DNA of 42,492 bases from an uncultured Planctomycetota bacterium (GTDB lineage Bacteria; Planctomycetota; SKW154), in the NCBI GenBank assembly GCA_964412125.1, contig CAYPNR010000007.1, positions 1-42,492 on the forward strand, given 5' to 3'. The notes below the pieces were generated by a model. It was not told the DNA's origin. It made no database searches and worked only from the letters and a program-made list of their open reading frames with translations. The translations under genes were made by a program, and so were the position numbers. Of the stretch, positions 1,520 through 23,300 are shown piece by piece. How positions within the stretch are numbered: position 1 is the stretch's first letter; each line of letters starts with the position of its first letter.

Positions 1520-1549
1520 CTTTCCCGCCTCCGCCAACAAACCCGTTGC

Positions 1550-1777: not shown

Positions 1778-1981
1778 GTGAAAGTCGGCGGAAGCGTGAC
1801 GCTCGTCTGCGTGGTGTCGGAAGAGCCCTGCACCGCGAGCGGCCTTGCGGCGCTGCGCGCGGCGGGGGTGGAGACGCTTCTCACAAGCGCCGGCGCCGCA
1901 GGTGAGGGAACACTGTTCGTGGTCGCCGACCCGGACGCCGAACAGGCGGTCCGCGCCCTCCACGCCGCGCTGTGCGAATGA
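1778..1981 (+). CDS. Small ACT-domain-like ORF (67 aa), possibly a C-terminal remnant of a regulatory-domain gene
   Basis: The GTG-start ORF reads KVGGSVTLVCVVSEEP..GLAALRAAGVETLLTSAGAAGEGTLFVVADPDAEQAVRALHAAL. This resembles a single ACT / ACT_7-type beta-alpha-beta-beta-alpha-beta unit such as the C-terminus of aspartokinase-like proteins. The frame is open only from 1733, and I saw no convincing RBS. Confidence 0.3.
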   Translation: MKVGGSVTLVCVVSEEPCTASGLAALRAAGVETLLTSAGAAGEGTLFVVADPDAEQAVRALHAALCE

Positions 1982-2049
1982 CTCAGACGGCGTGGACTCG
2001 AAACGAACCGCGTGGTAGAATCACCCGCGACACGACCGGAGAGGGAGAA

Positions 2050-2898: not shown

Positions 2899-2929
2899 GG
2901 CAGAACGAGTCCGACGGCGACGCGGACGG

Positions 2930-3445: not shown

Positions 3446-3482
3446 TTTTTTCTCCGCAAGAGACCGCCGCGGGCAAGGGAGC

Positions 3483-3497
3483 GCAACGCGTGTGCCA
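3483..3497 (-). promoter_or_regulatory. Sigma-54 (RpoN) -24/-12 promoter, TGGCAC-N5-TTGC, driving the ECF sigma gene
   Basis: The minus strand reads TGGCACacgcgTTGC, an exact match to the core consensus. It has the correct orientation, and 37 nt separate TTGC from the ATG at 3445. Confidence 0.5.
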
Positions 3498-3527
3498 CAG
3501 CGGGCACAAAACTCACAGCAGGTTGGC

Positions 3528-3590
3528 GCGCAAGGAGTTACGCGAAGCGGCCGGAACGGCTCCTTGCGCCGGCAGCCAAGGTTCCTTGGC
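3528..3590. promoter_or_regulatory. Two inverted repeats upstream of the sigma-54 promoter (candidate enhancer/UAS, or the nudix terminator)
   Basis: IR1 is GCGCAAGGAG (3528..3537) / CTCCTTGCGC (3560..3569), perfect 10-bp arms with a 22-nt spacer. IR2 is GCCAAGG-tt-CCTTGGC (3575..3590). Both lie 30-95 nt upstream of the -24 element and just downstream of the nudix stop (3604). Confidence 0.35.
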
Positions 3591-3603
3591 CGTTGGTGAC
3601 AAG

Positions 3604-4059
3604 TTATCTTGGCGGTGCGGCACGCGGGAAAACAACCCCCTCAAACTCAAGACGCGCGCGCGCCGCGCGTAAAATCCGCCTCGCGCCCTCGTAGGAAACC
3701 GCCTCCAGCGCCGCGTCGAAGGTCAGCCACGCGCAGTCGTCGTGCTCCTCCGACAGACGTGTGCGGCCGGAAAGGACCTCGGCCAGAAAATAGGTGACGG
3801 TCTTGTGAAACCGCACGCCCGCACGGTCGTAGGAGTACTCGTCGGACGTCCTGAAGTCCGGATCCACACGAATGCGGGTCAGTCCGGTCTCCTCTTCGAG
3901 TTCGCGACGCGCCGCCGCGAGGTCGTCTTCGCCCTCCTCGACCAGTCCCTTGGGGAAGCCCCAGTAGGAGTGCTCCGAGGAGTGGACGAGAAGGAACTCC
4001 GCGCCGCGACGGCCGCGCCGCCAGACCACGAATCCCGCCGAATGCTCCCGTTCCGCCAC
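3604..4059 (-). CDS. NUDIX hydrolase (Ap4A/dinucleoside-polyphosphate hydrolase-like)
   Basis: A perfect Nudix box is present: GLVEEGEDDLAAARRELEEETGL (GX5EX7REUXEEXGU). GTG start with GGGGGAG 8 nt upstream. It lies 28 nt downstream of the DHH gene. Confidence 0.9.
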   Translation of the reverse strand: MAEREHSAGFVVWRRGRRGAEFLLVHSSEHSYWGFPKGLVEEGEDDLAAARRELEEETGLTRIRVDPDFRTSDEYSYDRAGVRFHKTVTYFLAEVLSGRTRLSEEHDDCAWLTFDAALEAVSYEGARRILRAARARLEFEGVVFPRAAPPR

Positions 4060-4087
4060 GACAAGGACTCCCCCGCACGACCGCCGC

Positions 4088-4984
4088 TCAGTCCTCTTTC
4101 AACGCGTCGAGAATCTCGGCGACGGCGGATTCGGCCGTCTCCGGGTCGAGTTGGCAACTGCCGACGGTCGCGTGTCCGCCGCCGCCGAACTTCTTGAGAA
4201 GGGCGCCGACGTTCACCCCGCAGGTGCGGTTGAATATGCTGTGGCCGACCGCCACCACGACCGCGCCTTTGTGACCGTCGAACAGGCGCATCTCCACGTT
4301 CGCCTCCGGAAACATCGTGTACACCAGGAAACGGTTGCCCACCGGCTTCTCTTTCACGCCGCGGAAGTCGGTCACTATCACGTTGCCGTCGACGCGCGCG
4401 CGCTCGGCGAGCAACTCCTTGAACTGCTCCTGCTCCTTGAGAACGCGTTCGGTGCGTCTCTTCACCTCGCCGTTGTCGAGCACCACCTCCAGCGGCACCT
4501 CCTTGACGTACTCCACCAGCCAGCGGAAGTACTTGCGGAACTCCGGGCCGAGTCCCGAACGCGGGTCTATCGTCAGTCCGAGCAGTATCCAGCCGGACGG
4601 GCTGGTGACGTCCTCGACGGTGAGTTGCGCGCTGTCGAGTTTGTCGGCCGCCTCGAGCAGGTCTTTGAACCTGTCGAGTTTGTCGCGATGCTCGGGCGCG
4701 TAATGGTTGTAGATGACGCGGGCGGCGGAGGGCGCCGTCTCGAACCGGCCCTTGAATTCCCCTATCTCCGGCAGGCTCTCCTCCTCGGAGACGTGATGGT
4801 CGAACCACAAGCCGCAGCCCGGAATGTAGGGCACGTTGACGACGATGTCGTTCTCGTCCGCCTCCACCAGACCGTCCTGGACGTCTTTGGGATGGACGAA
4901 ACGTATCCTGCGCACGTCCTCGACTTCGCTGAGGAGCACGCTGCTGACCAGTCCGTCGAAATCGCCCCGCGTGACGATGTTCAC
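4088..4984 (-). CDS. DHH/DHHA1-family phosphoesterase (NrnB / exopolyphosphatase-related type)
   Basis: This is the C-terminal 298 codons of track ORF 4088..6184. GTG start at 4984 with GGAGGA upstream. Motifs: DFDG (motif I), WFDHHV (DHH) and FGGGGHATVG (DHHA1 GGGH). The upstream part of the track ORF is antisense to metK. Confidence 0.85.
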   Translation of the reverse strand: MNIVTRGDFDGLVSSVLLSEVEDVRRIRFVHPKDVQDGLVEADENDIVVNVPYIPGCGLWFDHHVSEEESLPEIGEFKGRFETAPSAARVIYNHYAPEHRDKLDRFKDLLEAADKLDSAQLTVEDVTSPSGWILLGLTIDPRSGLGPEFRKYFRWLVEYVKEVPLEVVLDNGEVKRRTERVLKEQEQFKELLAERARVDGNVIVTDFRGVKEKPVGNRFLVYTMFPEANVEMRLFDGHKGAVVVAVGHSIFNRTCGVNVGALLKKFGGGGHATVGSCQLDPETAESAVAEILDALKED

Positions 4985-5049
4985 ATCTCTTCCTCCAACC
5001 GGGCCGCCGCGATACCATACCACCGGCGGCGGCGCTTCGCAAGTCTCCC

Positions 5050-5077
5050 TTGACACGAAGGCGCGCGACCGTATCAT
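5050..5077 (+). promoter_or_regulatory. Sigma-70-like promoter of metK (TTGACA-N16-TATCAT)
   Basis: TTGACA at 5050..5055 and TATCAT at 5072..5077. The GGAGGA RBS is at 5099..5104 and the GTG at 5111. The leader is only about 25-30 nt. Confidence 0.4.
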
Positions 5078-5110
5078 GGTCGGACTCGACGCTTCTTTGG
5101 AGGACAGACG

Positions 5111-6268
5111 GTGACCGAGAAGATACATCGATTCACGAGCGAGTCCGTGGCGGTCGGACATCCCGACAAGGTGGCCGACCAGATCTCCGACGCCATTCTC
5201 GACGCGATAATGGAGCAGGACCCGATGGGCCGCGTCGCCGCCGAGACGCTGGTCACGACCGGTCTGGCCTTCGTCACCGGCGAGATAACCACCGACTGCT
5301 ACGTGGACATACCCAAAGTGGTGCGACGGACGATCAAGGACATCGGCTACGACGATCCGAGTCTCGGATTCGACTGGGAGACATGCGCGGTGCTCACGGC
5401 GATAGACGAGCAGTCGCCGGACATCAGCATGGGCGTGGTACGTGACGGCGGCGACATCGGCGCGGGCGACCAGGGAATAATGGTGGGCTACGCCACCGAC
5501 GAGACGCCGGAGATGATGCCGCTGCCGATAGTGCTTTCGCGGAAGTTGATGCAGCGTCTGGAGGAGGTGCGCACGCACAACGTACTCGATTTTCTCTGCC
5601 CCGACGGCAAGTGTCAGGTGACCATCGCGTATGAGGGTCGCAGGCCCGTGCACGTGGACACGGTGATTCTGTCGGCGCAGCACACCGAGACGCCGATCGA
5701 GCGCGTCCGCGAAGGTCTCGAACGGGAGGTGATACGGAAGACCATCCCCGAAGAGATGCTGGACGAGCGAACGAAGATTCTCATCAACCCGACCGGTCGC
5801 TTCGTCGAAGGCGGGCCCAAGGCGGACACGGGTCTGACCGGGAGAAAGGTGATAGTGGACACCTACGGCGGCCGCGCGGGTCACGGCGGCGGCGCCTTCT
5901 CCGGCAAGGATCCCACCAAGGTGGACAAGTCGGCCTCGTTCATGGCCCGCTACGCCGCGAAGAACGTCATCGCCGCCGGTCTCGCCAGCGAGTGCGAGAT
6001 ACAGGTGGCCTACGCCATCGGCGTCACAGAGCCCATAGCGGTCTTCGTCGACACCATGGGCACCGGCAGGACGCCGGACCACGTGATACGGGAACTGGTG
6101 AAGAAGCATTTCGACTTTCGTCCGAAGGCGATGATAGAGATACTGGACCTGCGCAGGCCCATCTACCGCGACATGGCGCGCCACGGATACTTCGGCCGCG
6201 AGGGCGAACGCTTCACGTGGGAGCGGACGGACAAAGCGGAGGCGCTTCGCGCCGACGCCGGGATTTGA
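5111..6268 (+). CDS. metK: S-adenosylmethionine synthetase
   Basis: [54 protein letters not shown]. 385 aa, full-length MetK signature blocks. Confidence 0.97.
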
Positions 6269-6288
6269 CGACGATTTGGAGGCGGAAC

Positions 6289-7554
6289 ATGAGTGACAGA
6301 TACGACGTAGCCGACATCTCCCTCGCAGAAGAGGGACTGAAGCGGATCACATGGGCCGATCGATTCATGCCGGTGCTCGCGCGCATCCGCGAGCGCTTCA
6401 TCGCGGAGAAGCCTCTCGACGGCGTGCGCATCGGAGCGTGCCTGCACGTGACCACCGAAACCGCCAATCTCGTGCGGACGTTGAAGGCGGGAGGCGCCGA
6501 GGTCGCGCTCTGCGCTTCCAATCCGCTCTCCACGCAGGACTACGTGGCCGCGGCCCTGGCCAAGCACTACGACGTCGGCGTGTTCGCCGTCTGCGGCGAG
6601 GAAAGCGAGCGCTACTACGACCACATCGAAAGCGTCCTCGCCACCAAACCCACCATCACGATAGACGACGGAGCGGATCTCGTCTCCACGCTGCACGAGC
6701 GCTACTCCGGGATGACCGGCGACGTGCTCGCCTCGATGGAGGAGACCACCACCGGTCTGATTCGTCTGCGGGCGATGGAGCGCGACGACGCTCTGCTGGT
6801 GCCCATCATCGCCGTCAACGACGCCGACGCCAAGCATCTGTTCGACAACCGCTACGGCACCGGTCAGTCCACCGTGGACGGCATCATCCGCGCCACCAAT
6901 CTCCTGCTGGCCGGCAGAACGGTGGTGGTCGGCGGATACGGCTGGTGCGGACGCGGTCTGGCCTCCCGCATCCGCGGCATGGGAGCGAGCGTCATCGTGA
7001 CGGAAGTGGACCCCATACGCGCGCTCGAGGCCGCGATGGACGGCTTCCGCGTAATGCCCATGTCCGAGGCGGCCGCAGAAGGCGATCTGTTCTGCACGCT
7101 CACCGGCGACAAACACGTCCTGCGACGCGAGCACTTCGAGAAGATGAAGGACGGCGCCATCGTCTGCAACTCGGGTCACTTCAACGTCGAGATCGACATT
7201 CCCGCGCTGGAGGAGGCGGCCGCCGAAGTGGAGCGCGGCGTTCGTCCCTACATAGACCGCTACATCATGCACGACGGTCGTTCCGTTTATCTGCTGGCGG
7301 AGGGGCGCCTCATCAACCTCGCCGCCGCGGAAGGACATCCGCCGTCGGTGATGGACATGTCCTTTTCCGTTCAGGCGCTCTGCGCGGAGTGGGCCGTCAA
7401 GAACGGAGGAACTCTGGCGCATCGCGTGCACAGCGTTCCGCGCGAGATAGACGAGAGCGTCGCGCGTCTCAAACTCGAGACGATGGGCGTCCGCATCGAC
7501 GATCTCACCGCCGAGCAACGCGACTATCTCTCCTCATGGCGGGAGGGCACTTAA
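6289..7554 (+). CDS. ahcY: Adenosylhomocysteinase
   Basis: ATG 6289 lies within track ORF 5992..7554. Blocks: [27 protein letters not shown] (NAD-binding), [17 protein letters not shown]. It starts 20 nt after metK. Confidence 0.97.
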
Positions 7555-7586
7555 CGTCGATTTCCGACGGTCGAGTCGGAGAGGAG

Positions 7587-8405
7587 ATGAGAGTCCGAGC
7601 GAGTGGACGAGAGTCGTTTTGCGCGCCGCTGTGGACCGCCGCGCGCCTGCTGGCGGAGGTCGGCCTCGTACTGGTCACGCGTCCGACCCGCTCACGCGCC
7701 GACGTCTTCTGCGCGGGCTTCGGCCACGCCGCGCCGCGGCCGTCCGCCGGAACGCTGATCGCGGCGCCGACCGACGAGGCGGCGGCCGCCGCGAAAGCGT
7801 CGGGCCGCGGCGACGTCCTCCGCGTCGACTACGGGCTGGACGACTTCGTCGACGCCGACTGCGACTCATACGAGTTTCTTCTGGAAAGCGACGCGCCTTA
7901 TCTGTTCTGCGCCTGCGAGATGAGCGGCCGCACGCCCATCGCGGCGCTCTGCGGCGCGCTCACCTGGGCGCAGAAGTGCCGCAGCGCGCCGCCCCTTGCG
8001 CTCCTCGCGCTCTGGGGCGTCGAGGAACGCGCCTATCAGGCGTTCCTGCACACAGCCGAAGGCTTCGGCCTCACCGAGCGGCTCCAGGTGGTCGAGGTCG
8101 CCGGCGGCGAAGAACTGGGCGCGCTGGCGGGACGCGCGCGTTGCGCCCTCTCGGTCCTCTCAGAACACGAGTGCGGTTACGTCGCGCTCGGCTCGGCGGC
8201 CGCGGGCGTTCCCACAGTGGTCCTCGGAGGCGGCGCGCATCTGGCCGACCACGTCGTGCTCGTGGAGGAGCCGGCCCAGGTCGCCGAGGCTCTCGAATCC
8301 GCACTCGAGCAGCGCGACGCCCTGGCGAGAGCCGCAGAGCCTCTCAGGTCGCGTCGATGGAAGACGTTTCTGGAAGCGGTGCTGTCGTTTGCGCGCCGCG
8401 GATGA
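7587..8405 (+). CDS. Short glycosyltransferase-like protein (GT1/GT4 C-terminal-domain-like, degenerate)
   Basis: ATG 7587 (GGAGAGGAG upstream) lies within track ORF 6351..8405. The C-terminal block LSVLSEHECGYVALGSAAAGVPTVVLGG resembles the PS..E.FG...lEAmAaGvPVV motif of GT-B enzymes. At 272 aa there is no full N-terminal Rossmann domain. Confidence 0.5.
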   Translation: MRVRASGRESFCAPLWTAARLLAEVGLVLVTRPTRSRADVFCAGFGHAAPRPSAGTLIAAPTDEAAAAAKASGRGDVLRVDYGLDDFVDADCDSYEFLLESDAPYLFCACEMSGRTPIAALCGALTWAQKCRSAPPLALLALWGVEERAYQAFLHTAEGFGLTERLQVVEVAGGEELGALAGRARCALSVLSEHECGYVALGSAAAGVPTVVLGGGAHLADHVVLVEEPAQVAEALESALEQRDALARAAEPLRSRRWKTFLEAVLSFARRG

Positions 8406-8438
8406 GCGACGACCAGCGTTTCCCGGAGCGCGGGCGGA

Positions 8439-9914
8439 TCAGACGCCGCGGCGCCTGGCGACGGCCGCTTCGTAGAGTTTGAGATACTCCGCGGCGGAGC
8501 GGTCCCAGCCGAATCTCCGTCGCATGCCGCAGGCCGCCAGCCGCCGCCAGGCGTCCCGGTCGTCACGATAGAGGGCGACGGCGCGACGCACCGCTTCGAG
8601 CAGCGCCTCAGGCGTGTAGTCCTCGAAGACGAAGCCGGTCGCCTCGCCGGTCTCCAGCGCCTGCGGACTGTAGTCGACGACCGTGTCGGCCAGACCACCC
8701 GTCTTGCGGACCACCGGCACGGTGCCGTAACGCATCGAGTACATCTGGTTGAGGCCGCACGGCTCGTAACGCGAAGGCATCAGGAACATGTCGCAGCCGG
8801 CCTCGATGAGGTGGGCGAGTCTCTCGTCGAACTTTATGAACGCGGAAAGCGAGCCGGCGTGCCTGCGCCGGGCCTCGCGGAACAGCGCTTCGTACTCCGG
8901 CTGACCCGTTCCGAGCAGGACGAATTGGACGCCGAGGTCCATTATTTCGTCCATGCACTTTCCGAGGATGTCGAAGCCCTTCTGTTCGGCGAGCCGACTG
9001 ACGATGCCGATCAGCGGGACGTCGGGCGCCTCGCCGAGACCGGCCTCGCGCTGCAGCGCCGCCTTGCAGACGGCTTTGCCGTCTGTGTCGTCGACGTCGT
9101 AGTTCGCGGGCAGATGCTCGTCGTCGGCCGGATTCCAGACCGAATAGTCGCAGCCGTTGAGTATGCCGATCAGGTCTTCAGCGCGCGCCGCGAGTATGTT
9201 TTCGATGCCGCAGCCGAACTCGGCGGTCTGTATCTCCCCGGCGTAGGTGGGACTGACGGTGTTCAGTTTGTCGGCGAATGCGACGCCGCCCTTCAGCAGA
9301 TTCATCTTGCCCCAGAACTCGAGATAGCGCCACGTGAAGTACTCCCACGGCAGACCGGTGAAGTTGAAGTCCCACTGGTCGAAGACGCCCTGATAGGCGA
9401 TGTTGTGAAGCGACAGGACGACGGCGGTGTCGCGGAACAGATCGTCCTCGGCGTACAAGGCGCGGAGGTACACCGGTATCATGGAGGTGTGCCACTCGTT
9501 CACGTGAACGACGTCGTAACGCGTCTTCCGCTTGCGGACGAATTCGAGGACGGCGCGGCAGAAGAAGATGAAGCGCTCGGCGTTGTCGCGATACTCGCCG
9601 CGTTCGTCCATGTAGAGGCCCGGACGATAGAAGTAACGATCGTGCTCGACGAAGTGGACGCGGACGCCGGAGTCCGGCAACGTGGTGTGCCGAAGAAAAG
9701 CGTGCTGTCTGCGACGAAAGACCGGAAACTCGACATCGACGTCTGCGTGCTCTATATCGAAGCCGCCGCTTTTGACCGCGGCGTACATCGGCGTGAACAC
9801 GTCCACCTCGACGCCGAGGGCGTCGAGAGCGACCGGAAGCGCTCCGCTGACGTCGGCGAGGCCGCCCGTTTTGGAAAACGGAACAATCTCACTCGTGGCG
9901 AAAAGGACCTTCAC
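8439..9914 (-). CDS. glgA: Glycogen/starch synthase
   Basis: GTG start at 9914 within track ORF 8439..10958. Blocks: VKVLFATSEIVPFSKTGGLADV (KTGGL motif), NEWHTSMIP, SRLAEQKG, PSRYEPCGLNQMY, VRKTGGLADTV. Confidence 0.93.
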   Translation of the reverse strand: MKVLFATSEIVPFSKTGGLADVSGALPVALDALGVEVDVFTPMYAAVKSGGFDIEHADVDVEFPVFRRRQHAFLRHTTLPDSGVRVHFVEHDRYFYRPGLYMDERGEYRDNAERFIFFCRAVLEFVRKRKTRYDVVHVNEWHTSMIPVYLRALYAEDDLFRDTAVVLSLHNIAYQGVFDQWDFNFTGLPWEYFTWRYLEFWGKMNLLKGGVAFADKLNTVSPTYAGEIQTAEFGCGIENILAARAEDLIGILNGCDYSVWNPADDEHLPANYDVDDTDGKAVCKAALQREAGLGEAPDVPLIGIVSRLAEQKGFDILGKCMDEIMDLGVQFVLLGTGQPEYEALFREARRRHAGSLSAFIKFDERLAHLIEAGCDMFLMPSRYEPCGLNQMYSMRYGTVPVVRKTGGLADTVVDYSPQALETGEATGFVFEDYTPEALLEAVRRAVALYRDDRDAWRRLAACGMRRRFGWDRSAAEYLKLYEAAVARRRGV

Positions 9915-10939
9915 GAGACACGTGCCTCCAAGACGCTCATGTCCGCCTCCATCAAGAAGCCGCGGGCGCTTTCCGGAGCGACGGGATTTATGTACACGCC
10001 GGTGCCCCACTCGAAGCCGGCCACTTTCGTCAGACGCGGAATCACTTCTATATGCCAGTGATAGTACTCCAGAAACTCGGTGTCGAACGCGCCGGTGTGC
10101 AGGATGTAGTTGTACGAGACGCCGGGCAGCGTCGCCTCGAGGCGGAACAGGGTACGCTGGAGAATGAAACCGAGGTCTTCGAACTGCGCCTTGCCGGCGT
10201 CCTCGAAATGACTGCCGTGGCGCTTCGGCAGAATCCACGTCTCGAACGGAAAACGTGAGGCGAACGGCTCGAACGCTATGAACTCCTCGGTTTCTTCGAC
10301 GACGCGTTCGCCCGTCGCCTTCTCGTCGCCTATCATGTCGCAGAAGACGCAGCGGCCGCGGTAGTCGTAGAACTCTTTGGAGCCGCGCATCTCTTCTCTG
10401 ATGCGCACCGGCACGAACGGCACGGCGATCAACTGCGAGTGGGAGTGGTAGAGAGAAGCGCCGCCCTCCTTGCCCACGTTCTTGAAAATCATTCCGTAAA
10501 GGAATCTTTTGTCCTTCTTCAGCGCCAGCAGCCTGTCGCGATACGCCCACATCACCTCCCGCACCTGCTTGAGCGGCACCTGCGTCTGCGAACGAACGTG
10601 TTCGGGACTCTCGACGATCACCTCGTGGACGCCGACGCCGCTCATCATGTCGTAGATTCCGACGCCTCTCTTGCAGAGGTCGCCGTCCGGCGAGAGCGCG
10701 GGAAACTTGTTCGGAATCACCCGTACCCACCATCCGGGGCCGTTCGGCTCGGTGCCCGCGGCGCGGTATGCGAGTATCTCCGGCGGCGTTTTGGATTCGT
10801 TGCCTTCGCAGAACGGACAGAAGCCGCCGGCCTCGGACCGCTCCTCCGCCGCGTGCGTGAAGTCGCTGGGTCTGCGGGCGCGTTCCTTGGCCACGATCAC
10901 CCAACGTCTGATTATGGGGTCCTTGCGCAACTCCGCCAT
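9911..10939 (-). CDS. GalT-family HIT nucleotidyltransferase (galactose-1-P uridylyltransferase / ADP-glucose phosphorylase-like)
   Basis: Zn knuckle CPFCEGNE and active-site block GGASLYHSHSQLIAV (H-x-H-x-Q). 342 aa. Its TGA overlaps the glgA GTG (GTGA, 9911..9914). Confidence 0.88.
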   Translation of the reverse strand: MAELRKDPIIRRWVIVAKERARRPSDFTHAAEERSEAGGFCPFCEGNESKTPPEILAYRAAGTEPNGPGWWVRVIPNKFPALSPDGDLCKRGVGIYDMMSGVGVHEVIVESPEHVRSQTQVPLKQVREVMWAYRDRLLALKKDKRFLYGMIFKNVGKEGGASLYHSHSQLIAVPFVPVRIREEMRGSKEFYDYRGRCVFCDMIGDEKATGERVVEETEEFIAFEPFASRFPFETWILPKRHGSHFEDAGKAQFEDLGFILQRTLFRLEATLPGVSYNYILHTGAFDTEFLEYYHWHIEVIPRLTKVAGFEWGTGVYINPVAPESARGFLMEADMSVLEARVS

Positions 10940-10973
10940 GCTTTCGGGCTCTCCTCAAGACGCCAGGGATACC

Positions 10974-11003
10974 ATTTTACCCGCCGCGGCCGGTCGCAGG
11001 CAA
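10974..11003 (-). promoter_or_regulatory. Sigma-70-like promoter of the galT-like/glgA operon (TTGCCT-N18-TAAAAT on the minus strand)
   Basis: The reverse complement reads TTGCCT gcgaccggccgcggcggg TAAAAT, about 35 nt upstream of ATG 10939. GAGGAGAG RBS. Confidence 0.35.
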
Positions 11004-11150
11004 CCGTTCGTGTGAAAATACGCGTCGCGGGTGTCGCCAAAACGGCGCTTGTTCTGGAAGTGGGGCGGCCCGGGAGTAGAATTTTCGACGACGGCGGCCA
11101 CGCGGTCCTGGAGTCGCGTGCGTCGCAGGAGCGGGTTTAAGGAGTGCGCC

Positions 11151-12404
11151 ATGGCGGAAGCGAAACCGAAGAAACCCATGAAGCGTCGGCCGATAGCCGC
11201 CGCCGCGACCATGAAGAAGATCATGGCCGACTATTTCTACTCACTCGACGCGGCGGCGAAGGACCCGAACCGCAAGGTCGCGTGGTGCACCTCCGTCGGT
11301 CCCGCGGAACTTCTGCACGTCTTCGGTTTCGCGGTGCACTATCCCGAGAACCACGGCGCGCTGCTCGGCGCCACGCGAACCGCGACGGACTTCATCCCGA
11401 CCGCCAACGCCCTGGGATACTCGCCGGATATCTGTTCGTATCTCACCAGCGACGTCGGCTCGTTCCTCAAGGGCGAAACGCCCCTGTCGAAGGCGTATCC
11501 CGGCATCGAAAGTCTTCCCAGGCCGGACGTATTGGTCTACAACACCAACCAGTGCCGCGACGTACAGGACTGGCTGATGTGGTACGCGCGACACTTCGGC
11601 GTTCCGTGCGTGGGCGTGCACACGCATCGCGGCCTGCCGGAGGTGACCGAGACGCACATAGAAGACGTGGCCGGCCAGATACGCGGACTGATACCGACAC
11701 TCGAAGAGGTCTCCGGCAGGAAATTCGACATGGACAGGTTTCGAGAGGTTGTGGGCCTGAGTCGCAGGTGCAGCGAACTGTGGCGCAGGACGCTGGAGAC
11801 GGCCGCGGCGGTGCCTTCGCCGCTGACGTTCTTCGACGGATGCATTCACATGGGACCCGCGGTGGTGCTGCGCGGCACACAGACGGCCGTGGACTACTAC
11901 GAGGAGTTGCTGCCGGAGTTGGAGAAGCGGATACAGGACGGCACAGGCGCGCTCGAGGAGGAGCGGTTCCGCGTGTACTGGGAGGGAATGCCGATCTGGG
12001 GCAAGTTACGCGAGTTGAGCGGACTGTTCTGGGACCTGAAGACCTGTGTGGTGGCCTCGACCTACTGCAACTCCTGGATTTTCGAGCAGTTCGATCCGGA
12101 GCGGCCGTTCGAGTCCATGGCCCGCGCCTACACGGAACTGTTCATCGTTCGCGACGACGGATGGAAGGAAGGCTACATAGAGCGGATGGTGCGTCAGTTC
12201 AAGGTGAACGGCATCATTTTCCACGACGCCAAGACCTGTCCGAACAACACCAACAGCCGCTACGGCATGCCGCAGCGACTGCAGGAGCGACTCGGGATAC
12301 CGTGCGTGACGGTCCACGGCGACCTGAACGACCTGCGCCTGTACAGCGAAGAGCAGACGCGGACGCAGATCGAAGCGCTGGTCGAGCAGATGTCCGCGGC
12401 GTAG
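11151..12404 (+). CDS. 2-hydroxyacyl-CoA dehydratase / BcrC-BadD-HgdB family protein (possibly double-cubane-cluster-protein-like)
   Basis: ATG 11151 (AAGGAG upstream) lies within track ORF 11031..12404. Blocks: VAWCTSVGPAELLHVFGF..HYPENH, DICSYL, NQCRDV, ASTYCNSW, FHDAKTCPNN. 417 aa with conserved Cys positions typical of HGD-D (PF06050-type) proteins. Confidence 0.85.
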   Translation: MAEAKPKKPMKRRPIAAAATMKKIMADYFYSLDAAAKDPNRKVAWCTSVGPAELLHVFGFAVHYPENHGALLGATRTATDFIPTANALGYSPDICSYLTSDVGSFLKGETPLSKAYPGIESLPRPDVLVYNTNQCRDVQDWLMWYARHFGVPCVGVHTHRGLPEVTETHIEDVAGQIRGLIPTLEEVSGRKFDMDRFREVVGLSRRCSELWRRTLETAAAVPSPLTFFDGCIHMGPAVVLRGTQTAVDYYEELLPELEKRIQDGTGALEEERFRVYWEGMPIWGKLRELSGLFWDLKTCVVASTYCNSWIFEQFDPERPFESMARAYTELFIVRDDGWKEGYIERMVRQFKVNGIIFHDAKTCPNNTNSRYGMPQRLQERLGIPCVTVHGDLNDLRLYSEEQTRTQIEALVEQMSAA

Positions 12405-16528: not shown

Positions 16529-17746
16529 TCAGCGCGGCCTTTTCCGCGCCGCGTCGTAGGCGTTCCGCAGCAGCGGACCGAACACCTTCTCGACCGCCTC
16601 CGACGGCCAGCCCTTCTCCAGGGCCGACAGGCCCAGCACCACCGCGTCCATTCGTCCCTGTTCGGTCCAGCCCCGGAGGACCGTCATCGGCGAGAAGCCG
16701 AGCCGCTCGACGCGGGCCGGCTCCGCCTCCCACAGCCGCAGGAGGGAGAGGAAAGCGTAAGCGGCGAGGAACGGATCGCGCACGACGGCGCGCGCGGCCG
16801 CGTCCGTCAGCGCCCGCACCGTCGCGTCGCTTACGCCCAAGCGTCGCACGGCCCAGACGCAGGCGAAGCGCATCGCCCGCACCGGCAGTTCCACCGGCCC
16901 GGCGCCTTCGGGCGCCTGCGGCACTTCGTCCATCACGCGGGCGAACAACGCCAGCATCTCCGCGCGGCGTTCGTCCAGTGCGCCGCCGACGGCGAGCGCG
17001 ACGGCCGCCTTGGTCCGCATCGCGTCGCGCGGGTCCATCGAGCCGCCCTTCTCCGGCCGATGCGGCCGGCGCAGGTCCGCCTCCGTCAGGAGCGCGCCGA
17101 GGCATTCGACCACCTCGTCCCGATCGAGACCGCAGGCGGCGGCGATGGTCTTCGGACTCCACAGCGGCCGCGCCTCCTCGCGCGGCGCGGAGGTGTAATA
17201 GTTTTCAAGGGCGCCGAGGAGCAACGAATCCCATCGACACAAAGCCGGCGGAGCCTCGCTGGTCACGTCGAGTGTGGGCGGCGAGCCGAAAAGCGGCAGC
17301 GCCTCCAAAAAGACCTGCACGCGCAGCCTTTTCGGCACGCGCCGGAGAGGCGTCGGATCGAACGCGCCGCGTCCGCCGCCGGTCGCGGCCGCCGCGAGCC
17401 ATCGACAGAAGTCGTCCTGGGCGACGAGCGCGTCGAGCAGCGGTTTCGGAGCCGCCTCCAGAAGCGCCGGCACACGTCTTCTGCCGACCCACCGCGCGAC
17501 GATGAACGGCGCCGCGTCGGACGGCGAGAGCACGTCGAGCGCGCGCGCGCGCACGAGCACGTCCAGCATGGTGTGTCGCCGCAGCGTTCCCGCGCGCGTC
17601 CACATCCCGCGGACCGCCTCCGGTCGCTCGCGCACCATACGCAGGAGTTGTTTTTCCATGGCCGCCCAGGGATCGTCGCCCGCTCCGCCTTCTCCGCAGC
17701 CGACCGTCAGCAAAAGCGCCGCCGCGACAGGTATCCATTTCGACAT
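16529..17746 (-). CDS. Hypothetical lipoprotein, alpha-helical/HEAT-like
   Basis: ATG 17746 lies within track ORF 16529..18049, giving MSKWIPVAAALLLTVGC (lipobox LTVGC). Amino-acid composition is balanced compared with the overlapping Arg-rich shadow ORFs. I recognised no family. Confidence 0.6.
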   Translation of the reverse strand: MSKWIPVAAALLLTVGCGEGGAGDDPWAAMEKQLLRMVRERPEAVRGMWTRAGTLRRHTMLDVLVRARALDVLSPSDAAPFIVARWVGRRRVPALLEAAPKPLLDALVAQDDFCRWLAAAATGGGRGAFDPTPLRRVPKRLRVQVFLEALPLFGSPPTLDVTSEAPPALCRWDSLLLGALENYYTSAPREEARPLWSPKTIAAACGLDRDEVVECLGALLTEADLRRPHRPEKGGSMDPRDAMRTKAAVALAVGGALDERRAEMLALFARVMDEVPQAPEGAGPVELPVRAMRFACVWAVRRLGVSDATVRALTDAAARAVVRDPFLAAYAFLSLLRLWEAEPARVERLGFSPMTVLRGWTEQGRMDAVVLGLSALEKGWPSEAVEKVFGPLLRNAYDAARKRPR

Positions 17747-17876
17747 CTCGACGTCTCCGCTTGCGTTTCGCACCGACGGTATTATACCCGCAGGAGAGGC
17801 GAGTGTAACGACGACGACCGACACTGTTGCGGTCGACGGAGAGGTGTGGTAACATTCGTTTTCGGGGGCCGGGGAA

Positions 17877-18497
17877 GTGAGACACGGACTTTTCGGCGGC
17901 AGTTTCGATCCGCCGCACGTCGGACACATCGAGACGGCGCGCCGCGCGCGCGCGGCGTTCGACCTGCGGCGCGTGACGTTCGTCGTGGCCGCGTGGCCGC
18001 CGCACAAGGGCGCGGAGCGTCGCGCGTCGTTCGCGCACCGCGCCGCCATGACACGCCTGGCCGTCTCCGACCTGTCCTGGGCGGAGGTCGACGAGAGCGA
18101 GGCGGAAAGAGAAGGTCCCTCCTACACGATCCACACGCTGCAGGACTGGCGTCGGCGGGCGCCCGAGGACGAATTGTTCTTCATAATCGGCAGCGACTCG
18201 CTGGCGGAGTTGCCGTACTGGCACAGGATTTCGGAAGCGCTGGAGGCGGCGCGTTTCGTGACGGTGGCGCGGGACGGCTTCGACGAGACGATCTTCGAGC
18301 GTCTCGCGGCGGCGCTGGGAGAGAAGGCGGTCGAACGCATGAGACGGGACACGATTCGACTGGAGCCCGTCCGCGTCTCCAGCACCGAGGTGCGTCGGCG
18401 GATAGCCGCCGGCGAGCCCTGGAGCGAACTGGTGCCGCCGTGCGTCGCGCGTTACGTGCGCGATCACAACCTTTATGCTACGCGAAGGCCGTCCTGA
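17877..18497 (+). CDS. nadD: Nicotinate-nucleotide adenylyltransferase
   Basis: GLFGGSFDPPHVGH ((H/T)xGH motif), PPHK, SSTEVRRRI. GTG start. Confidence 0.9.
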   Translation: MRHGLFGGSFDPPHVGHIETARRARAAFDLRRVTFVVAAWPPHKGAERRASFAHRAAMTRLAVSDLSWAEVDESEAEREGPSYTIHTLQDWRRRAPEDELFFIIGSDSLAELPYWHRISEALEAARFVTVARDGFDETIFERLAAALGEKAVERMRRDTIRLEPVRVSSTEVRRRIAAGEPWSELVPPCVARYVRDHNLYATRRPS

Positions 18498-18545: not shown

Positions 18546-19040
18546 ATGCGGGAGCGAGAAGGCTTCACGTTGCTGGAGTTGATGCTGGCGCTGGTACTTC
18601 TCGGCGTCGCGGCGCTGGGCATAGTCGATCTGCTTTCGGTGACCGAGTCGCAGGGGCACGCTCTGCTCAACCGCGAAGCGGCGCTGCTCATCTGCCGCGA
18701 GCGGATAGAGCAACTCCAGAACGTGAGGGGGCTCGGCGAGGGAACCGGCTCCAATCCGGACGGCCCGTTTCTGCCGGCGTTCGACAAAGTCTGCGTGGAG
18801 CGGTTCGGCTCGCTGTGGCTGACCGAGAGCGACTACTACGCGGCCTCCGACGGCACGGCTCCCTCCCGCAGCGCGCTCGAGCCGGCCCGTCGCGTGGACG
18901 TGGTTACGCAGTTGAGATGGGTGGACGACCCGGCGGGGGGAGGCGTTCAGGACTATTTACTGGCCACGGTGACGGTGGTCTGGCGCGAGCGCGGCCGCAG
19001 GAACACGGTTTCCATATCGCGTTACGTGGCGTACAGGTAG
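18546..19040 (+). CDS. Prepilin-type N-terminal cleavage/methylation protein (small minor pseudopilin, GspI/H-like)
   Basis: MREREG|FTLLELMLALVLLGVAALG is a canonical class III signal: Gly-1, Phe+1 and Glu+5. ATG 18546 has GGGAG 8 nt upstream; the track start is GTG 18540. About 164 aa. Confidence 0.8.
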   Translation: MREREGFTLLELMLALVLLGVAALGIVDLLSVTESQGHALLNREAALLICRERIEQLQNVRGLGEGTGSNPDGPFLPAFDKVCVERFGSLWLTESDYYAASDGTAPSRSALEPARRVDVVTQLRWVDDPAGGGVQDYLLATVTVVWRERGRRNTVSISRYVAYR

Positions 19041-19049
19041 GGGGACGGG

Positions 19050-21350
19050 ATGCGCGGAACGACGCTTTTGGAGATACTTTTGGCGCTGGCGATAGCGGGA
19101 GCGGTCGGCGCGGGCATAGTGGCGGTGTGGTCGGTGTCGCTGTCGGTGAGCGAGCGGACCGACGCGGAGACCGCGCTGAGAAGCGACATGGCGGCGGCGC
19201 TCGAGCGAATGGCCGCCGATCTGCGCTGCTGCAGTCGACTGGTCGAGGCGTCCGCCGACGCGATCACCGTGACGCGACGCGAAGGCGTGGTGATCGGCAC
19301 CGAAGACGGCGTCCATCTTCTCAGCGACGGCGCTTCTTCATGGCGACGCATAAACGGTACGCCGCCGAACGACATTCCGGCCGGCGCGGCGATTCCGGCG
19401 CTGCTGTCGGAGGACGAAGGCTCAATTTTCGCGGGCGGCGCCGACGGCAACGTCTATCTCAGCACGGACCTCGGCAACACATGGCGCGCGACGGCGGTCG
19501 CCGGCGGTCCCATCGTCGCCGTCGCGCGCGCGCCCGACCGCACGCTCTACGCCCTCTGTCGTCAGCCTCCCGCGCTGTTCCGCTCCGACGACGACGGCGC
19601 GACATGGACGCCCTGCGCCGCTTTTCCGGATCCGCCCCCCGTCGCGAACGCGCTCTCGGTGCGTCCCGACGGCCGCGTCCTGGTCGGCACCGGCTGGACC
19701 GGCGCCGTCAACATGTTCGTCAGCGACGACCGCGGCGCTTCCTGGCGGACCGCCGGCGTCTTCTATCTGCCGCCGGACCGGTTCGCCTACCGCAGACGGA
19801 TACGCATCCGTAACAGAACCAACACCAATCTCACCGACTATCAGGTGCGTATCGAGGTGAAACACGAACCCGGCAAGATGCGCGCCGACTACGGCGACGT
19901 GCGCTTCAAGGCCGGACCGAATCCGTCCTCGGCGGACCTCTCCTACTGGATGGAGGACGCGGGCGTCGACAGGGCCGTTTTCTGGGTGAAAGTGCCGAGC
20001 ATCCCCCGCCGCCGAACGATAAGTATATGGATGTTTTACGGCAATCCGAGTCTGACCACCACCTCCGACATCAACGCGACCATGGAGCCGCAGTACATAA
20101 GGTACGACGGGCTGGGCTCCTGGGTGAACGAGGCCTGGAGCGAGCCGACTCTCACCGGCGGCGGTCAGTGGGTGGACCTGCAGTTCACTTTTCCGTACTG
20201 GCGGGAGCCCAAGAGTCGCGCGTATCTCTGCTTCTACGGCTATCTGCTGTTCGACCCCACCGCCGGAGTGGTGGACTCCAGCAACAGCGCCGACGAGTTC
20301 TACTCGCGCTGCATGGCGGCCGTGTTCTGGGACGACGCTCAGATAGGCGCCAGCGGCGACGGCGCCTATTTCGCCTCCTATCAGGACCGCGCTTTGTTCG
20401 AGTGGCGGCTCAGCAGAGTGATCTTCGGCCGTCGGGCCTGCACGGCGCAGGTCCAGGCCGAGATATGGCGCAACGGCGACCTTCGAATATCCACAAGACG
20501 CATCCGCGAGCGCTGGATACGATGGTCGCCGACTCTGGGCGTCTCACGCGGCGACGGCTCCGATTTCGATCTTCTGTACAACAACAGCACGCCGCCGCAG
20601 AACAGATCCTGGCTCTACGCCGTCCGCAAGATCGTCGACCCGGCGCCCACCGTCACCATAGACAACGAACAGGGCATGGGACCGGCTGTGACGGTACTGT
20701 CGCTGTACTGCACCGAAGGCGGACTGTCGATCGCCGGCACCGACCAGACCGGATACGTTTTCACCTCCGGCGACGGTCTGTTGTGGACGAGGACGACCGG
20801 CACCTTCGCCGCGACGGAAGCGACCGCGGTCTTCGCCGACGATCACGGACTGCTGCTGGCGGGAGCCGTGCCCAACACCGTTCTCTGGCGCTCGACCGAC
20901 GGCGGCGCCAACTGGAACGCCCTGCAGCAGATTCCGTCTTCGCAACGCATCAACGCCCTCGCGCCGGATCCGCTCGCCGGACTCTACGCCGCCTGTCAGA
21001 CGGCCGGCGCGACGCTCTTCACGCCGCTGGCGGGCTCGGTAATGAGTCCGCTGCCCGGCTCCGGTCTGAATCGGCATTTCGCGGTCGGCGTCGCTTACTC
21101 CCGCGTCCGTTTTCATCTCGACGCCGTCGACGGCTTCATGCGTACCGATCCCTATCGTTCGCTTCCGCTCGGCGGAAAACTGCTCTCGTCTTTGGCGATC
21201 ACCTACTTCGACGGCACCTTCAATCCGCTCTCGCCGGCCGACCAGAACGAACGCGACGCGGTCCGCTCGGTCACCGTCGAGGCGACGCTCGTCAAGGACG
21301 GCCACAGCGCCGTTCTCAGGACGTCCAACGCGCTGAGGGGACCGCGATGA
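19050..21350 (+). CDS. Giant pseudopilin-like protein: GspJ-like N- and C-terminal parts enclosing BNR/Asp-box repeats, a DUF2341 domain and a NIDO-like domain
   Basis: The N-terminus is MRG|TTLLEILLALAIAGAVG, followed by ALERMAADLR (GspJ-like). Asp-boxes: STDLGNTW, SDDDGATW, SDDRGASW, STDGGANW, plus degenerate SDGASSW and SGDGLLW. The DUF2341-like block is YRRRIRIRN..LTDYQVRI..YGDVRF..LSYWME..AVFWVKVPSIP..IWMFYGNPS. The C-terminus DAVRSVTVEATLVKDGHSAVLRTS is pseudopilin-like. Confidence 0.8.
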   Translation: MRGTTLLEILLALAIAGAVGAGIVAVWSVSLSVSERTDAETALRSDMAAALERMAADLRCCSRLVEASADAITVTRREGVVIGTEDGVHLLSDGASSWRRINGTPPNDIPAGAAIPALLSEDEGSIFAGGADGNVYLSTDLGNTWRATAVAGGPIVAVARAPDRTLYALCRQPPALFRSDDDGATWTPCAAFPDPPPVANALSVRPDGRVLVGTGWTGAVNMFVSDDRGASWRTAGVFYLPPDRFAYRRRIRIRNRTNTNLTDYQVRIEVKHEPGKMRADYGDVRFKAGPNPSSADLSYWMEDAGVDRAVFWVKVPSIPRRRTISIWMFYGNPSLTTTSDINATMEPQYIRYDGLGSWVNEAWSEPTLTGGGQWVDLQFTFPYWREPKSRAYLCFYGYLLFDPTAGVVDSSNSADEFYSRCMAAVFWDDAQIGASGDGAYFASYQDRALFEWRLSRVIFGRRACTAQVQAEIWRNGDLRISTRRIRERWIRWSPTLGVSRGDGSDFDLLYNNSTPPQNRSWLYAVRKIVDPAPTVTIDNEQGMGPAVTVLSLYCTEGGLSIAGTDQTGYVFTSGDGLLWTRTTGTFAATEATAVFADDHGLLLAGAVPNTVLWRSTDGGANWNALQQIPSSQRINALAPDPLAGLYAACQTAGATLFTPLAGSVMSPLPGSGLNRHFAVGVAYSRVRFHLDAVDGFMRTDPYRSLPLGGKLLSSLAITYFDGTFNPLSPADQNERDAVRSVTVEATLVKDGHSAVLRTSNALRGPR

Positions 21351-22657
21351 AGACGGGTTCGGCTCTGCTGCTGACGTTGCTGTTCATAACCGCCGTCGCG
21401 CTCATGGTCGGAGGACTGGCGAGCCGCGTGGTGGTCGGCGGTCGCGCCATCGTCGCTCAAACCGATCGCGCCGCCGCGCTCGCGACAGCCTACGCCGCCG
21501 CGACCCGCACGCGCTTCCGCCTCTCGCTCTCCGCCGACTGGGCCGCTTCGCCGCCGGACGCCCTCTTCACCGACGAGCCGTTTCCGGCCGACGGCCTCTA
21601 TACCGTCACGCTGGCCGAGCGCACCCGCGACGCGGTGACCGCCGTGATAGACGCGCGCTGGCGCGCCTCACGCGTGCTCGCGCGCGCCCGTATCCGGCGG
21701 AACACCGACTGGTGGGACTTCAACTGGACGCGGAGAAGACCCATCATCATAACCAACTCGTCCTCACAGGACCTGGTGGACTATCAGGTGCGGATCGTGG
21801 TGCCGCGTCATCAGGGGATGCGCGCCGACTACGGCGATATGCGTTTCGTGGCCGGCGGCTCGACGCTCCCCTACTGGGTGGAGTACTCCGACGCGAACTC
21901 GGCCGTCGTCTGGGTGCGCGTTCCGGGAATTCCCGCCAACTCGACCGCCACCGTCTATCTCTACTACGGCAATCCGTCCGCGACCGGACAGTCGTCCTTC
22001 GCCGCGACAATGGAGCCGGTCTACAACTGCTATCCGGTCAGCATTCCGTGGACGAACCGGCCGGACAACAATCCGTACATGCGAGCGCTGCGGGAGGGAC
22101 GCACCTACACCCTGCCCTGGCGGTTTCCGTACTGGGGGCAGTTCAAGGACGAGGTCTACATCACGACTCTCGGATACCTGCTGTTTCAGCCGACGCCGTA
22201 CCAACTGCTGCGGAACAACTCGACCGACGGCATGAGCAGCCGTCAGATGGTGGCGGCGTTCTGGGACGACACGCGCGCCGACGTGGTCTTCGGCGTCTGT
22301 GAGAATCCCGGCGTCTACGTCTACCAGCAGAACGACCGTCTGTTCATAGACTGGGAGGTGGTTCACTATCTGTACTGGTGGCGACGGGTCCGCGCCTCCA
22401 TGAAGTTTCAGGTGTTTCTCTACCGCTGCGGCGACATACGACTGGTGCGCGGCGTCTACGGCGGACGTCCGTCGCCGACGCTCGGCGTCTCGCGCGGCGA
22501 CGGAACATACATAGACATCACCGGCCAGTGGAGGACGCGCACGTCGTGGCTGTTCGCGCAACGGAAATACGTGGAGCCAGAGCCGACCGCGGCGACAGGC
22601 GCCGAAGAGTACGCGGCGACCTCCGTCATAACCGACTGGACCGAGTCACATCCCTGA
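21347..22657 (+). CDS. PilX/GspK-like N-terminal anchor protein carrying a DUF2341 plus NIDO-like module
   Basis: ATG 21347 overlaps the upstream TGA (ATGA), within track ORF 20027..22657. The N-terminus MKTGSALLLTLLFITAVALMVGG is PilX_N-like. Residues from about 125 onward are paralogous to residues 246-535 of the preceding protein. Confidence 0.75.
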   Translation: MKTGSALLLTLLFITAVALMVGGLASRVVVGGRAIVAQTDRAAALATAYAAATRTRFRLSLSADWAASPPDALFTDEPFPADGLYTVTLAERTRDAVTAVIDARWRASRVLARARIRRNTDWWDFNWTRRRPIIITNSSSQDLVDYQVRIVVPRHQGMRADYGDMRFVAGGSTLPYWVEYSDANSAVVWVRVPGIPANSTATVYLYYGNPSATGQSSFAATMEPVYNCYPVSIPWTNRPDNNPYMRALREGRTYTLPWRFPYWGQFKDEVYITTLGYLLFQPTPYQLLRNNSTDGMSSRQMVAAFWDDTRADVVFGVCENPGVYVYQQNDRLFIDWEVVHYLYWWRRVRASMKFQVFLYRCGDIRLVRGVYGGRPSPTLGVSRGDGTYIDITGQWRTRTSWLFAQRKYVEPEPTAATGAEEYAATSVITDWTESHP

Positions 22658-22670: not shown

Positions 22671-23300
22671 ATGAGGCCGAAAACGAGACGAAAAGAGAGT
22701 TCGCCTTCACGAAGAGCCGACGAGTCGGCGCCGCGGAGCGGACGCGCGAGTCGCGCGGCGGCGCTTCTCGTCCTGGCGGTCGCGTCTCTTGCGACGGGCG
22801 CGTGCGCGCCGCCGCCCGAGAGAGGCTTTTCAATTCCCGAGTCCGGGGCGCCCATCCGGCGTTTCGCCCGCGTCGACGACGGTCTCTATCGCGGCGCCTA
22901 TCCCGTCGGCCGTCTCGACTTCCTCAAAAGACGCGGCATACGCACGGTCGTCAACCTCCGCTCGGCCCACGACTATCGCGCCGAGGCGGAGGCCGCAGGA
23001 CTCAACTACGTCCATATTCCCCTCTCCGCGAGCAAGCCGCCGCCCGCCGAAGCCGTCCGCAGGTTTCTGGCCGTCGTGACCGATCCGGCGAACCGTCCCG
23101 TGTACGTGCACTGCCGCCGCGGCGCCGACAGGACCGGCGCGATGGTGGCCGTCTATCGAATCGCCGTCTGCGGGTGGAGCGCCGAACGGGCCGTCCGCGA
23201 AATGGAGAGTTTCGGCTTCGCGAGCCTGCTCTACGGCCGACTGCGGAAGTACGTGCTCCACTGGCGTCCGCAAGGGGCGCCGGCGCCCGCGTCGCGCTGA
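22671..23300 (+). CDS. Exported (lipoprotein-signal) CX5R protein tyrosine/dual-specificity or PTP-like phosphatase
   Basis: The signal carries lipobox LATGAC. The P-loop is VHCRRGADRTG (HCX5R(S/T)). The fold resembles SIW14/PFA-DSP-type small phosphatases. It starts 13 nt after the preceding gene. Confidence 0.85.
   Translation: MRPKTRRKESSPSRRADESAPRSGRASRAAALLVLAVASLATGACAPPPERGFSIPESGAPIRRFARVDDGLYRGAYPVGRLDFLKRRGIRTVVNLRSAHDYRAEAEAAGLNYVHIPLSASKPPPAEAVRRFLAVVTDPANRPVYVHCRRGADRTGAMVAVYRIAVCGWSAERAVREMESFGFASLLYGRLRKYVLHWRPQGAPAPASR

Follow-up and report, generated by a model that had tools for sequence, protein, structure and literature searches.

Three adjacent genes of an uncultured Planctomycetota bacterium encode candidate minor pilins, two of which carry large built-in beta-rich domains

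The subject of this work is a cluster of three genes, here called A, B and C, located at positions 18546–22657 of a 42,492-nucleotide stretch of DNA (the window; contig CAYPNR010000007.1 of assembly GCA_964412125.1) from an uncultured Planctomycetota bacterium. An earlier reading of the letters by a model, referred to below as the original prediction, had taken the cluster for a trio of minor pseudopilins laid out like a GspI/J/K or PilV/W/X operon, and the gene packing and N-termini given there agree exactly with the open reading frames (ORFs). The genes are as follows.

18546–19040, forward strand: gene A, an ORF of 164 amino acids (aa), with GGGAG preceding the ATG.
19050–21350, forward strand: gene B, an ORF of 766 aa.
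21347–22657, forward strand: gene C, an ORF of 436 aa, its start codon lying in an ATGA overlap with the stop of B.

On the ORF map of the window, A and B are separated by 9 nt, and B and C overlap by the 4 nt ATGA. GC content at third codon positions is 0.82–0.84 in the A, B and C frames, and the distribution of GC over codon positions is that of real genes in this window of 65% GC.

The N-terminus of A consists of a leader, MREREG, with the predicted cleavage site (shown below as ↓) before FTLLE and with Glu5 present, and the protein scores above the cut-offs of both Pfam N_methyl (PF07963), with 27.7 bits against 21.2, and TIGR02532, with 25.2 bits against 16.3. Partial matches to equivalog models, with gspI the best (E=1.9e-5) and gspH and ComGE also found, all fall below cut-off and cover the N-terminal helix only. 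The orthologs of A, which are 50–53% identical, have leaders of the form G↓[LF]TLLE and an acidic residue at +5 throughout; for the ortholog in locus L013 (788–1285) the gene call is too short, and the true start, six codons upstream, gives MHRSPG↓IMLID with Asp at +5. Judged from its sequence, A is a small minor pilin of the PilV/GspI (PilI) type. Protein B begins MRG↓TTLLE, with Thr at +1 and Glu at +5, and its orthologs have [GA]↓FTLLE and score 23.8–26.2 bits with N_methyl, above the cut-off of 21.2. Protein C begins MKTG↓SALLL, without Glu5; the corresponding motif of its orthologs is GG↓SALIL, and no acidic residue is present at +5 in any of those with an intact predicted N-terminus. The PilX_N family (PF14341) matches C orthologs over its whole profile, one of them, P0021, exceeding the cut-off of 25.5 bits with 26.6 and three others reaching 18–25 bits; the match of C itself to the GspK model (E=0.045) is below cut-off. 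A six-frame pattern search of the 42.5 kb found the class III motif at the starts of A and B and nowhere else. The profile check of the N-termini that accompanied the original prediction is thus passed by A in the window, by B through its orthologs and by C through the single ortholog above the PilX_N cut-off.

Protein B is made up of the following segments, for which the structural features are those of an AlphaFold2 (AF2) model with its predicted local distance difference test (pLDDT) scores.

19050–19283, forward strand (residues 1–78): class III signal peptide, helix alpha1 (6–59) and first strand.
19284–19769, forward strand (residues 79–240): first four blades of a BNR/Asp-box beta-propeller, pLDDT 80–95.
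19788–20690, forward strand (residues 247–547): two-domain module between the blades, composed of a DUF2341 beta-sandwich and an unnamed beta-rich domain of ~200 aa.
20694–21029, forward strand (residues 549–660): remaining propeller blades, with Ycf48 matches at 617–665 and modelled strands at 549–658, pLDDT 72–89.
21075–21347, forward strand (residues 676–766): putative C-terminal beta-sheet half of a pilin fold (LAITYFDG, VRSVTVEATL, AVLRTSNALRG).

A profile of the B family matches PDB propellers of the BNR kind, among them GH74 xyloglucanase, with E=4e-12, Ycf48 and sortilin, and because these matches form two blocks, at ~85–247 and 556–667, we conclude that the propeller is interrupted. 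Six Asp-box motifs were counted by eye, and Pfam BNR matches at 28.5 bits (cut-off 27). The AF2 model as a whole has a mean pLDDT of 66.8 and includes a beta-sandwich at 247–330. Foldseek searches with it returned propellers only (GH74, E=1e-10) with a low overall template modelling score, and are therefore uninformative on the pilin part of B. PilY1/PilC (PF05567/IPR008707) gave no Pfam match in B at E<=1, and no PilY1 structure was present among the top 50 Foldseek matches, where propellers of the GH74, WD40 and LRP types were found instead. The arrangement is one of nesting, the module lying within the propeller and the propeller within N- and C-terminal pilin-like segments. The propeller that had been suggested as fused in cis is thus borne out, as a BNR propeller in B, while the modules described as lectin-like proved to be DUF2341 and an unnamed domain. 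When A, B and C were searched against PDB sequences, both as single sequences and as profiles, pilins were found through the N-terminal helix only, in addition to propeller matches for B, and the module of C had no match.

The corresponding segments of C, again with the features of an AF2 model, are given below.

21347–21706, forward strand (residues 1–120): pilin module, composed of helix alpha1 (4–60, 57 residues) and four antiparallel strands (72–117).
21731–22606, forward strand (residues 129–420): DUF2341 and second domain, a paralog of the module in B, modelled as beta-rich domains at 129–207 and 227–417.
22625–22648, forward strand (residues 427–434): beta-strand at the extreme C-terminus, T.V[IV].W, pLDDT ~82–85, kept in orthologs.

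This model has a mean pLDDT of 87.5 and a predicted template modelling score of 0.74, and in it the N-terminal part of C adopts a pilin fold. Foldseek of that part gave a local match to the pilin ComZ of Thermus (6qvi_B, probability 0.91), the only match of high probability; no solved structure was found for C at E<1e-3. The original prediction had called C PilX/GspK-like and without Glu5, and the G↓SALLL motif, the PilX_N matches of the orthologs and the modelled fold all agree with this. On the strength of the model, C is a minor pilin of the PilX/GspK (PilK) type, and by analogy with GspK and CpaL its terminal strand may return to its own pilin sheet.

Residues 248–547 of B and 130–427 of C are 39% identical (BLASTP, E=3e-53) and hence paralogous, so that a single two-domain module is common to both proteins. 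Its first domain, DUF2341 (PF10102; cut-off 23.4), is recognized at 54.2 bits in B (residues 280–354, E=2e-14) and at 63.6 bits in C (E=2.3e-17). The second domain (B ~355–547, positions 20112–20690; C ~227–420, positions 22025–22606) matches no Pfam family or solved structure and is marked by the motifs FPF[YW]..., GY[LI]xF, [AP]FWDDxR, RNGDI, G[VI]S[KR]GDG and RKYVxPEP. A NIDO-like identity, considered on account of its motifs, was dropped when no Pfam match was found at E<=1, and the beta-sandwich matches that Foldseek gave for C, to a PL26 lyase and to beta-galactosidase domains, are too weak to count as evidence for a lectin. The second domain is also present in the archaeal pilin-like proteins P0025, P0067 and P0070, and twice in a secreted non-pilin, P0096. 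When the C profile was searched exhaustively with HMMER, more than 31,000 cluster representatives bearing DUF2341 were obtained, mostly giant repeat proteins, among which three or four are full-length C-like and about five B-like. Archaeal proteins with class III signal peptides carry the same two-domain module, and one of these is encoded beside archaeal genes of the T2SSE/T2SSF (PilB/PilC) type and additional genes for pilin-like proteins.

Two observations on this module may be added. An archaeal contig of 41% GC (L008) contains, at 794–11790, a type IV pilus-like locus in which T2SSE and T2SSF are encoded together with several proteins that have archaeal class III signal peptides; it adjoins a pilin-like protein with the DUF2341 two-domain module. 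In a Planctomycetota metagenome-assembled genome (MAG), a protein of 562 aa (P0024, DRP82_06420, on a contig of 3 kb) has the pilin N-terminus and first blades of B followed by a C-type module and C-terminus, the product either of a misassembly or of a deletion that arose when the modules of B and C, being paralogs, recombined.

Few proteins make up the B family: one copy at 98% identity (P0001), four full-length members at 39–41% and a number of fragments. Where their sources are named, these are MAGs labelled 'Planctomycetota bacterium'; one contig is from a hydrothermal-vent metagenome and another bears a 'GBSed' sediment-sample label. Orthologs of the trio, at 39–53% identity, keep the pilin motifs, and A, B and C follow one another in this order in no fewer than eight distinct loci (L001–L004, L006/L007, L010, L013 and L014), whose flanks differ, so that the survey of synteny called for with the original prediction finds the three genes co-conserved. 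In a more distant lineage (L009 and L013), a pilM-pilN fusion followed by pilO lies directly 3′ of the trio, and in L009 pilO is in turn followed by a PilP-like gene. This adjacency is the only direct tie of the trio to assembly machinery. On the other side, a nadD-type (CTP_transf_like) gene lies directly 5′ of A in the window and in L001–L004, L006, L007 and L014, with a gap of 15–50 nt or an overlap, and is kept there though all other flanks vary; L010 has a nadD-like ORF 5′ of A, as judged by layout only, and in L013 nadD is absent and the trio abuts pilMN. None of the loci examined has a gene of the PilY1 type next to the trio.

Since the trio is conserved while its flanks vary, and since pilMN and pilO adjoin it in relatives, a tip complex of the PilV/W/X (GspI/J/K) type is the best reading of these genes. 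None of the outcomes that the original prediction had named as grounds for its refutation turned up. The succession of a small I-type gene, J and K, with its 9-nt gap and 4-nt overlap, fits the near-universal synteny of pilI-J-K (PMC12918778). We consider it probable that A, B and C are the equivalents of PilV, PilW and PilX (GspI/J/K) and that, in a diderm bacterium, they serve a type IVa-like pilus as its initiation and tip complex, the adhesin being fused in cis. Our current model is that a prepilin peptidase encoded elsewhere would cleave each protein after Gly-1, that helix alpha1 would keep A, B and C anchored in the inner membrane, and that the three would there assemble as a heterotrimer priming pilus polymerisation. 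The trio would then end up at the pilus tip, with C, which has no Glu5, uppermost. Protein B would carry its BNR propeller inside a pilin fold, C would carry its module between the pilin domain and the terminal strand, and the domains so displayed would bind a ligand, possibly a glycan or a surface. As there is apparently no separate adhesin of the PilY1 type, the adhesive parts would be built into the pilins themselves.

A less secure element of this model is the fold of the B termini. To the original prediction they had looked like the two halves of a GspJ-type pseudopilin split by some 600 aa; the insertion of ~600 aa stands, but a GspJ-type fold does not follow from the comparisons, as the signal was lost without alpha1. 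These comparisons used insertion-deleted B, in which residues 1–79 are joined to 676–766, in five orthologs. Searched against Pfam and NCBIfam, such constructs were significant at the N-terminal motif only: the gspJ model TIGR01711 was the best equivalog match in two of four B constructs, where it covered just the N-terminus and stayed under its cut-off (E=2.5e-6 and 9.5e-5), and T2SSJ matched a single ortholog at E=0.41. A profile of insertion-deleted B run against 5.8 billion proteins retrieved ten ordinary pilins of 190–276 aa, half of which (5/10) contain Pfam T2SSJ, and hhalign with the five T2SSJ-bearing pilins gave a probability of 96% and E=2.6e-9, with both halves covered. The same alignment pairs LAITYFDG of B with ITFTYFDDDG, the T2SSJ-type motif being LQAITFTYFDDDG. 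We nevertheless regard it as plausible that the B termini form a pilin fold of the GspJ/PilW type, given the position of the gene, its N-terminal character, the weak match of the C-terminal motif and the AF2 model, of low confidence in this part.

A number of observations weigh against the proposed tip complex. In a control in which alpha1 was removed, hhalign of B with the T2SSJ group collapsed to E=0.01 and a probability of 4%, and homology of the globular part of B to GspJ is therefore not claimed. The AF2 model of B is of low confidence at both ends, with pLDDT 44–58 for helix 6–59 and ~60 for the C-terminal strands (714–720, 740–749 and 752–761). The B of the window is below the N_methyl cut-off (E=0.14–0.9), and all three window proteins are below the curated cut-offs of the GspI/J/K, PilV and PilX models tested (TIGR01707 gspI, TIGR01711 gspJ, PF11612 T2SSJ, NF037980 GspK, TIGR02523 PilV and PF14341 PilX_N), which they match at the N-terminus only, PilX_N being passed solely by ortholog P0021. 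The likeness to GspI/J/K or PilV/W/X operons claimed for the trio accordingly extends to gene order, motifs, loss of Glu5 and co-conservation, not to membership of the families defined by hidden Markov models (HMMs). Pilus machinery, a major pilin and a prepilin peptidase were not found in the window or in most of the related loci, nor was a fourth minor pilin of the GspH/FimU type found in the cluster. A gene of 163–165 aa that lies 5′ of nadD in L001, L004 and L006, and at the same position in L003, was considered as such a fourth pilin and rejected, its product being a lipoprotein.

The alternative that survives best, although we think it unlikely, is that the pilin-like N-termini are export and anchor signals only, an idea put forward for the numerous prepilin-motif proteins of the PVC group (Planctomycetes, Verrucomicrobia and Chlamydiae), and that B and C are surface proteins, either membrane-anchored or released, that bind glycans or act as enzymes and are never polymerised into a filament. 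In most loci the trio does sit among housekeeping genes beside nadD and far from any machinery, but pilMNO lies beside it in two lineages, and the strict I-J-K-like order is kept, with Glu5 lost in the third member only. The propeller resembles carbohydrate-active folds of the GH74/sialidase type, and there are weak matches to the Verru_Chthon cassette proteins C and D, cassettes with pilin motifs and of unclear role being known in the PVC group; such a role does not account for the complete modelled pilin fold and conserved terminal strand of C. Membership of the trio in a Verru_Chthon cassette was itself rejected, the matches being weak and N-terminal only.

A shade less likely again is a role in a type II secretion system (T2SS), with the trio forming the GspI/J/K tip of its pseudopilus and the extra domains touching secreted substrates or the secretin. 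The best partial equivalogs are indeed gspI for A, gspJ for the B orthologs and GspK for C (at the E-value given above), but none of these matches reaches its cut-off or extends beyond the N-terminal helix, and the C orthologs match PilX_N, not T2SSK. Likewise, T2SSJ is present in half of the database matches of insertion-deleted B, and proteins of the GspK type provide the terminal strand themselves and can do without PilY1 (PMC12918778), yet DUF2341 otherwise occurs in pilus loci, and 300–600 aa of additional domains would have to fit in, or pass through, a periplasmic pseudopilus. The neighbours of the trio in L009 and L013 are PilM_2/PilN/PilO, alignment proteins of type IVa pili, not GspL/GspM, and their presence favours a pilus of type IVa-like character over a T2SS pseudopilus. 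The view that takes the N-termini for common Sec signal peptides or transmembrane anchors, alike to pilins by coincidence, is effectively refuted, for although B and C of the window each fall below the N_methyl and PilX_N thresholds, A passes curated cut-offs, the B orthologs pass with a canonical G↓FTLLE, position +5 remains acidic in A and B of every lineage examined (with Asp in the A of L013), the modelled alpha1 helices are 54 (B) and 57 (C) residues long, and the window has its class III motif at the A and B starts only.

The gene immediately preceding the trio is the following.

17877–18497, forward strand: nadD (nicotinate-nucleotide adenylyltransferase), directly 5′ of A.

A scan of the sequence from nadD through the gene after C found no promoter-like or convincing terminator-like site, and nadD is probably co-transcribed with A-B-C; there is no apparent functional tie between NAD synthesis and pilins. 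On the opposite strand between ribD and nadD lies an ORF (16529–18049, 405–506 aa) whose codon usage is gene-like and which has no match in Pfam; it is called in the near-identical locus L005 as well. A phosphatase of the DSP/PTP type (22671–23300), for which an N-terminus judged by eye makes an export signal probable, starts 13 nt 3′ of C, and this spacing, together with the lack of a promoter- or terminator-like site after C, makes it probable that its gene is co-transcribed too; it is kept in L005 only. Outside the trio the window encodes metK, ahcY, starch synthase, folE, thiolase, ribD, nadD and a secreted phosphatase, as well as purine nucleoside phosphorylase, ileS, ruvC, der, a subunit of pyruvate:ferredoxin oxidoreductase and an ABC transporter. 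Among the sizeable window ORFs with gene-like codon usage there is no component of a T2SS or type IV pilus, all of them being housekeeping genes or without a Pfam match. The Pfam scan of the window ORFs also agrees with the original prediction in finding no major pilin, ATPase, platform, secretin or prepilin peptidase, and tRNA and Rfam scans of the window gave no match. At the left edge (positions 1–2000) GC content falls to 0.53 and GC skew is strongly negative, and an ORF of 496 aa on the reverse strand (50–1540) has no Pfam match.

The tips of pili determine the targets to which bacteria adhere, and how an adhesin is attached to the fibre has been clarified only recently. The trio would represent a further solution to this problem, in which large domains are built into the minor pilins at the J and K positions, and it ties DUF2341, a family of unknown function, more firmly to the tips of type IV filaments in both bacteria and archaea. 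It is tempting to speculate further that PilY1 has been replaced by B and C jointly, a PilW-type pilin having absorbed the propeller and a PilX-type pilin the module ahead of the licensing strand, and that the DUF2341 module is an ancient mobile tip module of archaeal and bacterial pili; we put this forward tentatively, as the less likely course of events. If B and C do replace PilY1, the whole tip adhesin would be a covalent part of the initiation complex, and the trio would offer a natural minimal system in which to study the coupling of adhesin and initiation, as well as a handle on the function of DUF2341. The practical value of the locus lies in a compact model and a rule for annotation, not in a new kind of machine.

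A tip complex of GspI, GspJ and GspK is said to have been described by Korotkov and Hol in 2008. The trio resembles the PilV-W-X and GspI-J-K sets in being contiguous and in the same order, with a small first member, a third member without Glu5 and class III signal peptides, and it resembles PilV-W-X in that its relatives are tied to PilM/N/O. It differs from both in that the protein at the J position is 766 aa long, with ~600 aa inserted, and the protein at the K position bears a module of 300 aa, in that no PilY1 or FimU/GspH-type gene adjoins it, in its mostly housekeeping surroundings and in not reaching the HMM cut-offs. PilV-PilW-PilX(-PilY1) initiation and tip complexes have been described (Treuner-Lange 2020, PMC7541494; Ellison 2026, PMC12918778). 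In the latter account, the K-type pilin receives a C-terminal beta-strand from PilY1, a strand which GspK and CpaL provide themselves, and CpaL is composed of a pilin-like domain, a middle region of ~470 aa and a terminal strand (PMC12918778). The linear layout of C is like that of CpaL/TadG, with a pilin-like domain, a large middle and a beta-strand at the extreme C-terminus; unlike CpaL/TadG, the trio looks similar to type IVa pili rather than Tad, and unlike GspK, the middle of C is DUF2341 and an unnamed domain, not the GspK alpha-domain. With PilY1/PilC the trio shares a beta-propeller and variable adhesive modules, at times DUF2341, on a minor-pilin complex, but the propeller of B is of a BNR/GH74/Ycf48-like kind and a covalent part of the pilin.

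ComZ and GspK are known examples of minor pilins with large insertions. The trio shares with ComZ of T. thermophilus (PDB 6qvi) the placing of a large domain within a minor pilin, but the inserts here are a BNR propeller and DUF2341, as opposed to a beta-solenoid, and ComZ serves DNA uptake, of which there is no sign here. In modular pilins, such as PilB and PilC of S. sanguinis, additional domains are grafted onto a pilin module, which displays them at the tip (Raynaud 2021, PMC8179133). Both B and C conform to that definition in combining a pilin module or motif with non-pilus domains; unlike modular pilins, the graft in B sits inside the predicted fold of the B termini and is nested, not appended by a linker, and paralogous modules are present on two members of one trio. 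Dataset S1 of the same study lists seven N_methyl-DUF2341 proteins and three more that also have PF13385, and DUF2341 occurs in PilY1 architectures as well (PMC8179133). The family, which corresponds to IPR018765 (PMC11003980), is also found in proteins of archaeal Epd pilus loci that have been proposed as tip adhesins (Makarova 2016, PMC4858521), and in M. maripaludis a DUF2341 gene among the epd genes, MMJJ_08210, was repeatedly hit when transposon mutants were screened for defects in transformation (PMC10133366). In loci of the archaeal Epd type, the DUF2341 two-domain module seen in our trio is likewise carried on class III signal-peptide proteins, there encoded next to genes for a pilus ATPase and platform, but the archaeal examples have archaeal signal peptides and machinery and are single large proteins, with no I-J-K trio. 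The novelty assigned to the arrangement by the original prediction was thus overrated, as modular pilins, fusions of DUF2341 to pilins and to PilY1, archaeal DUF2341 loci and the cis layouts of CpaL and GspK had all been published (PMC8179133, PMC4858521, PMC12918778). What is new here is the doubly nested insertion in a pilin at the J position, the paralogous modules on two members of the trio, the apparent absence of PilY1, and the lineage in which this combination is found.

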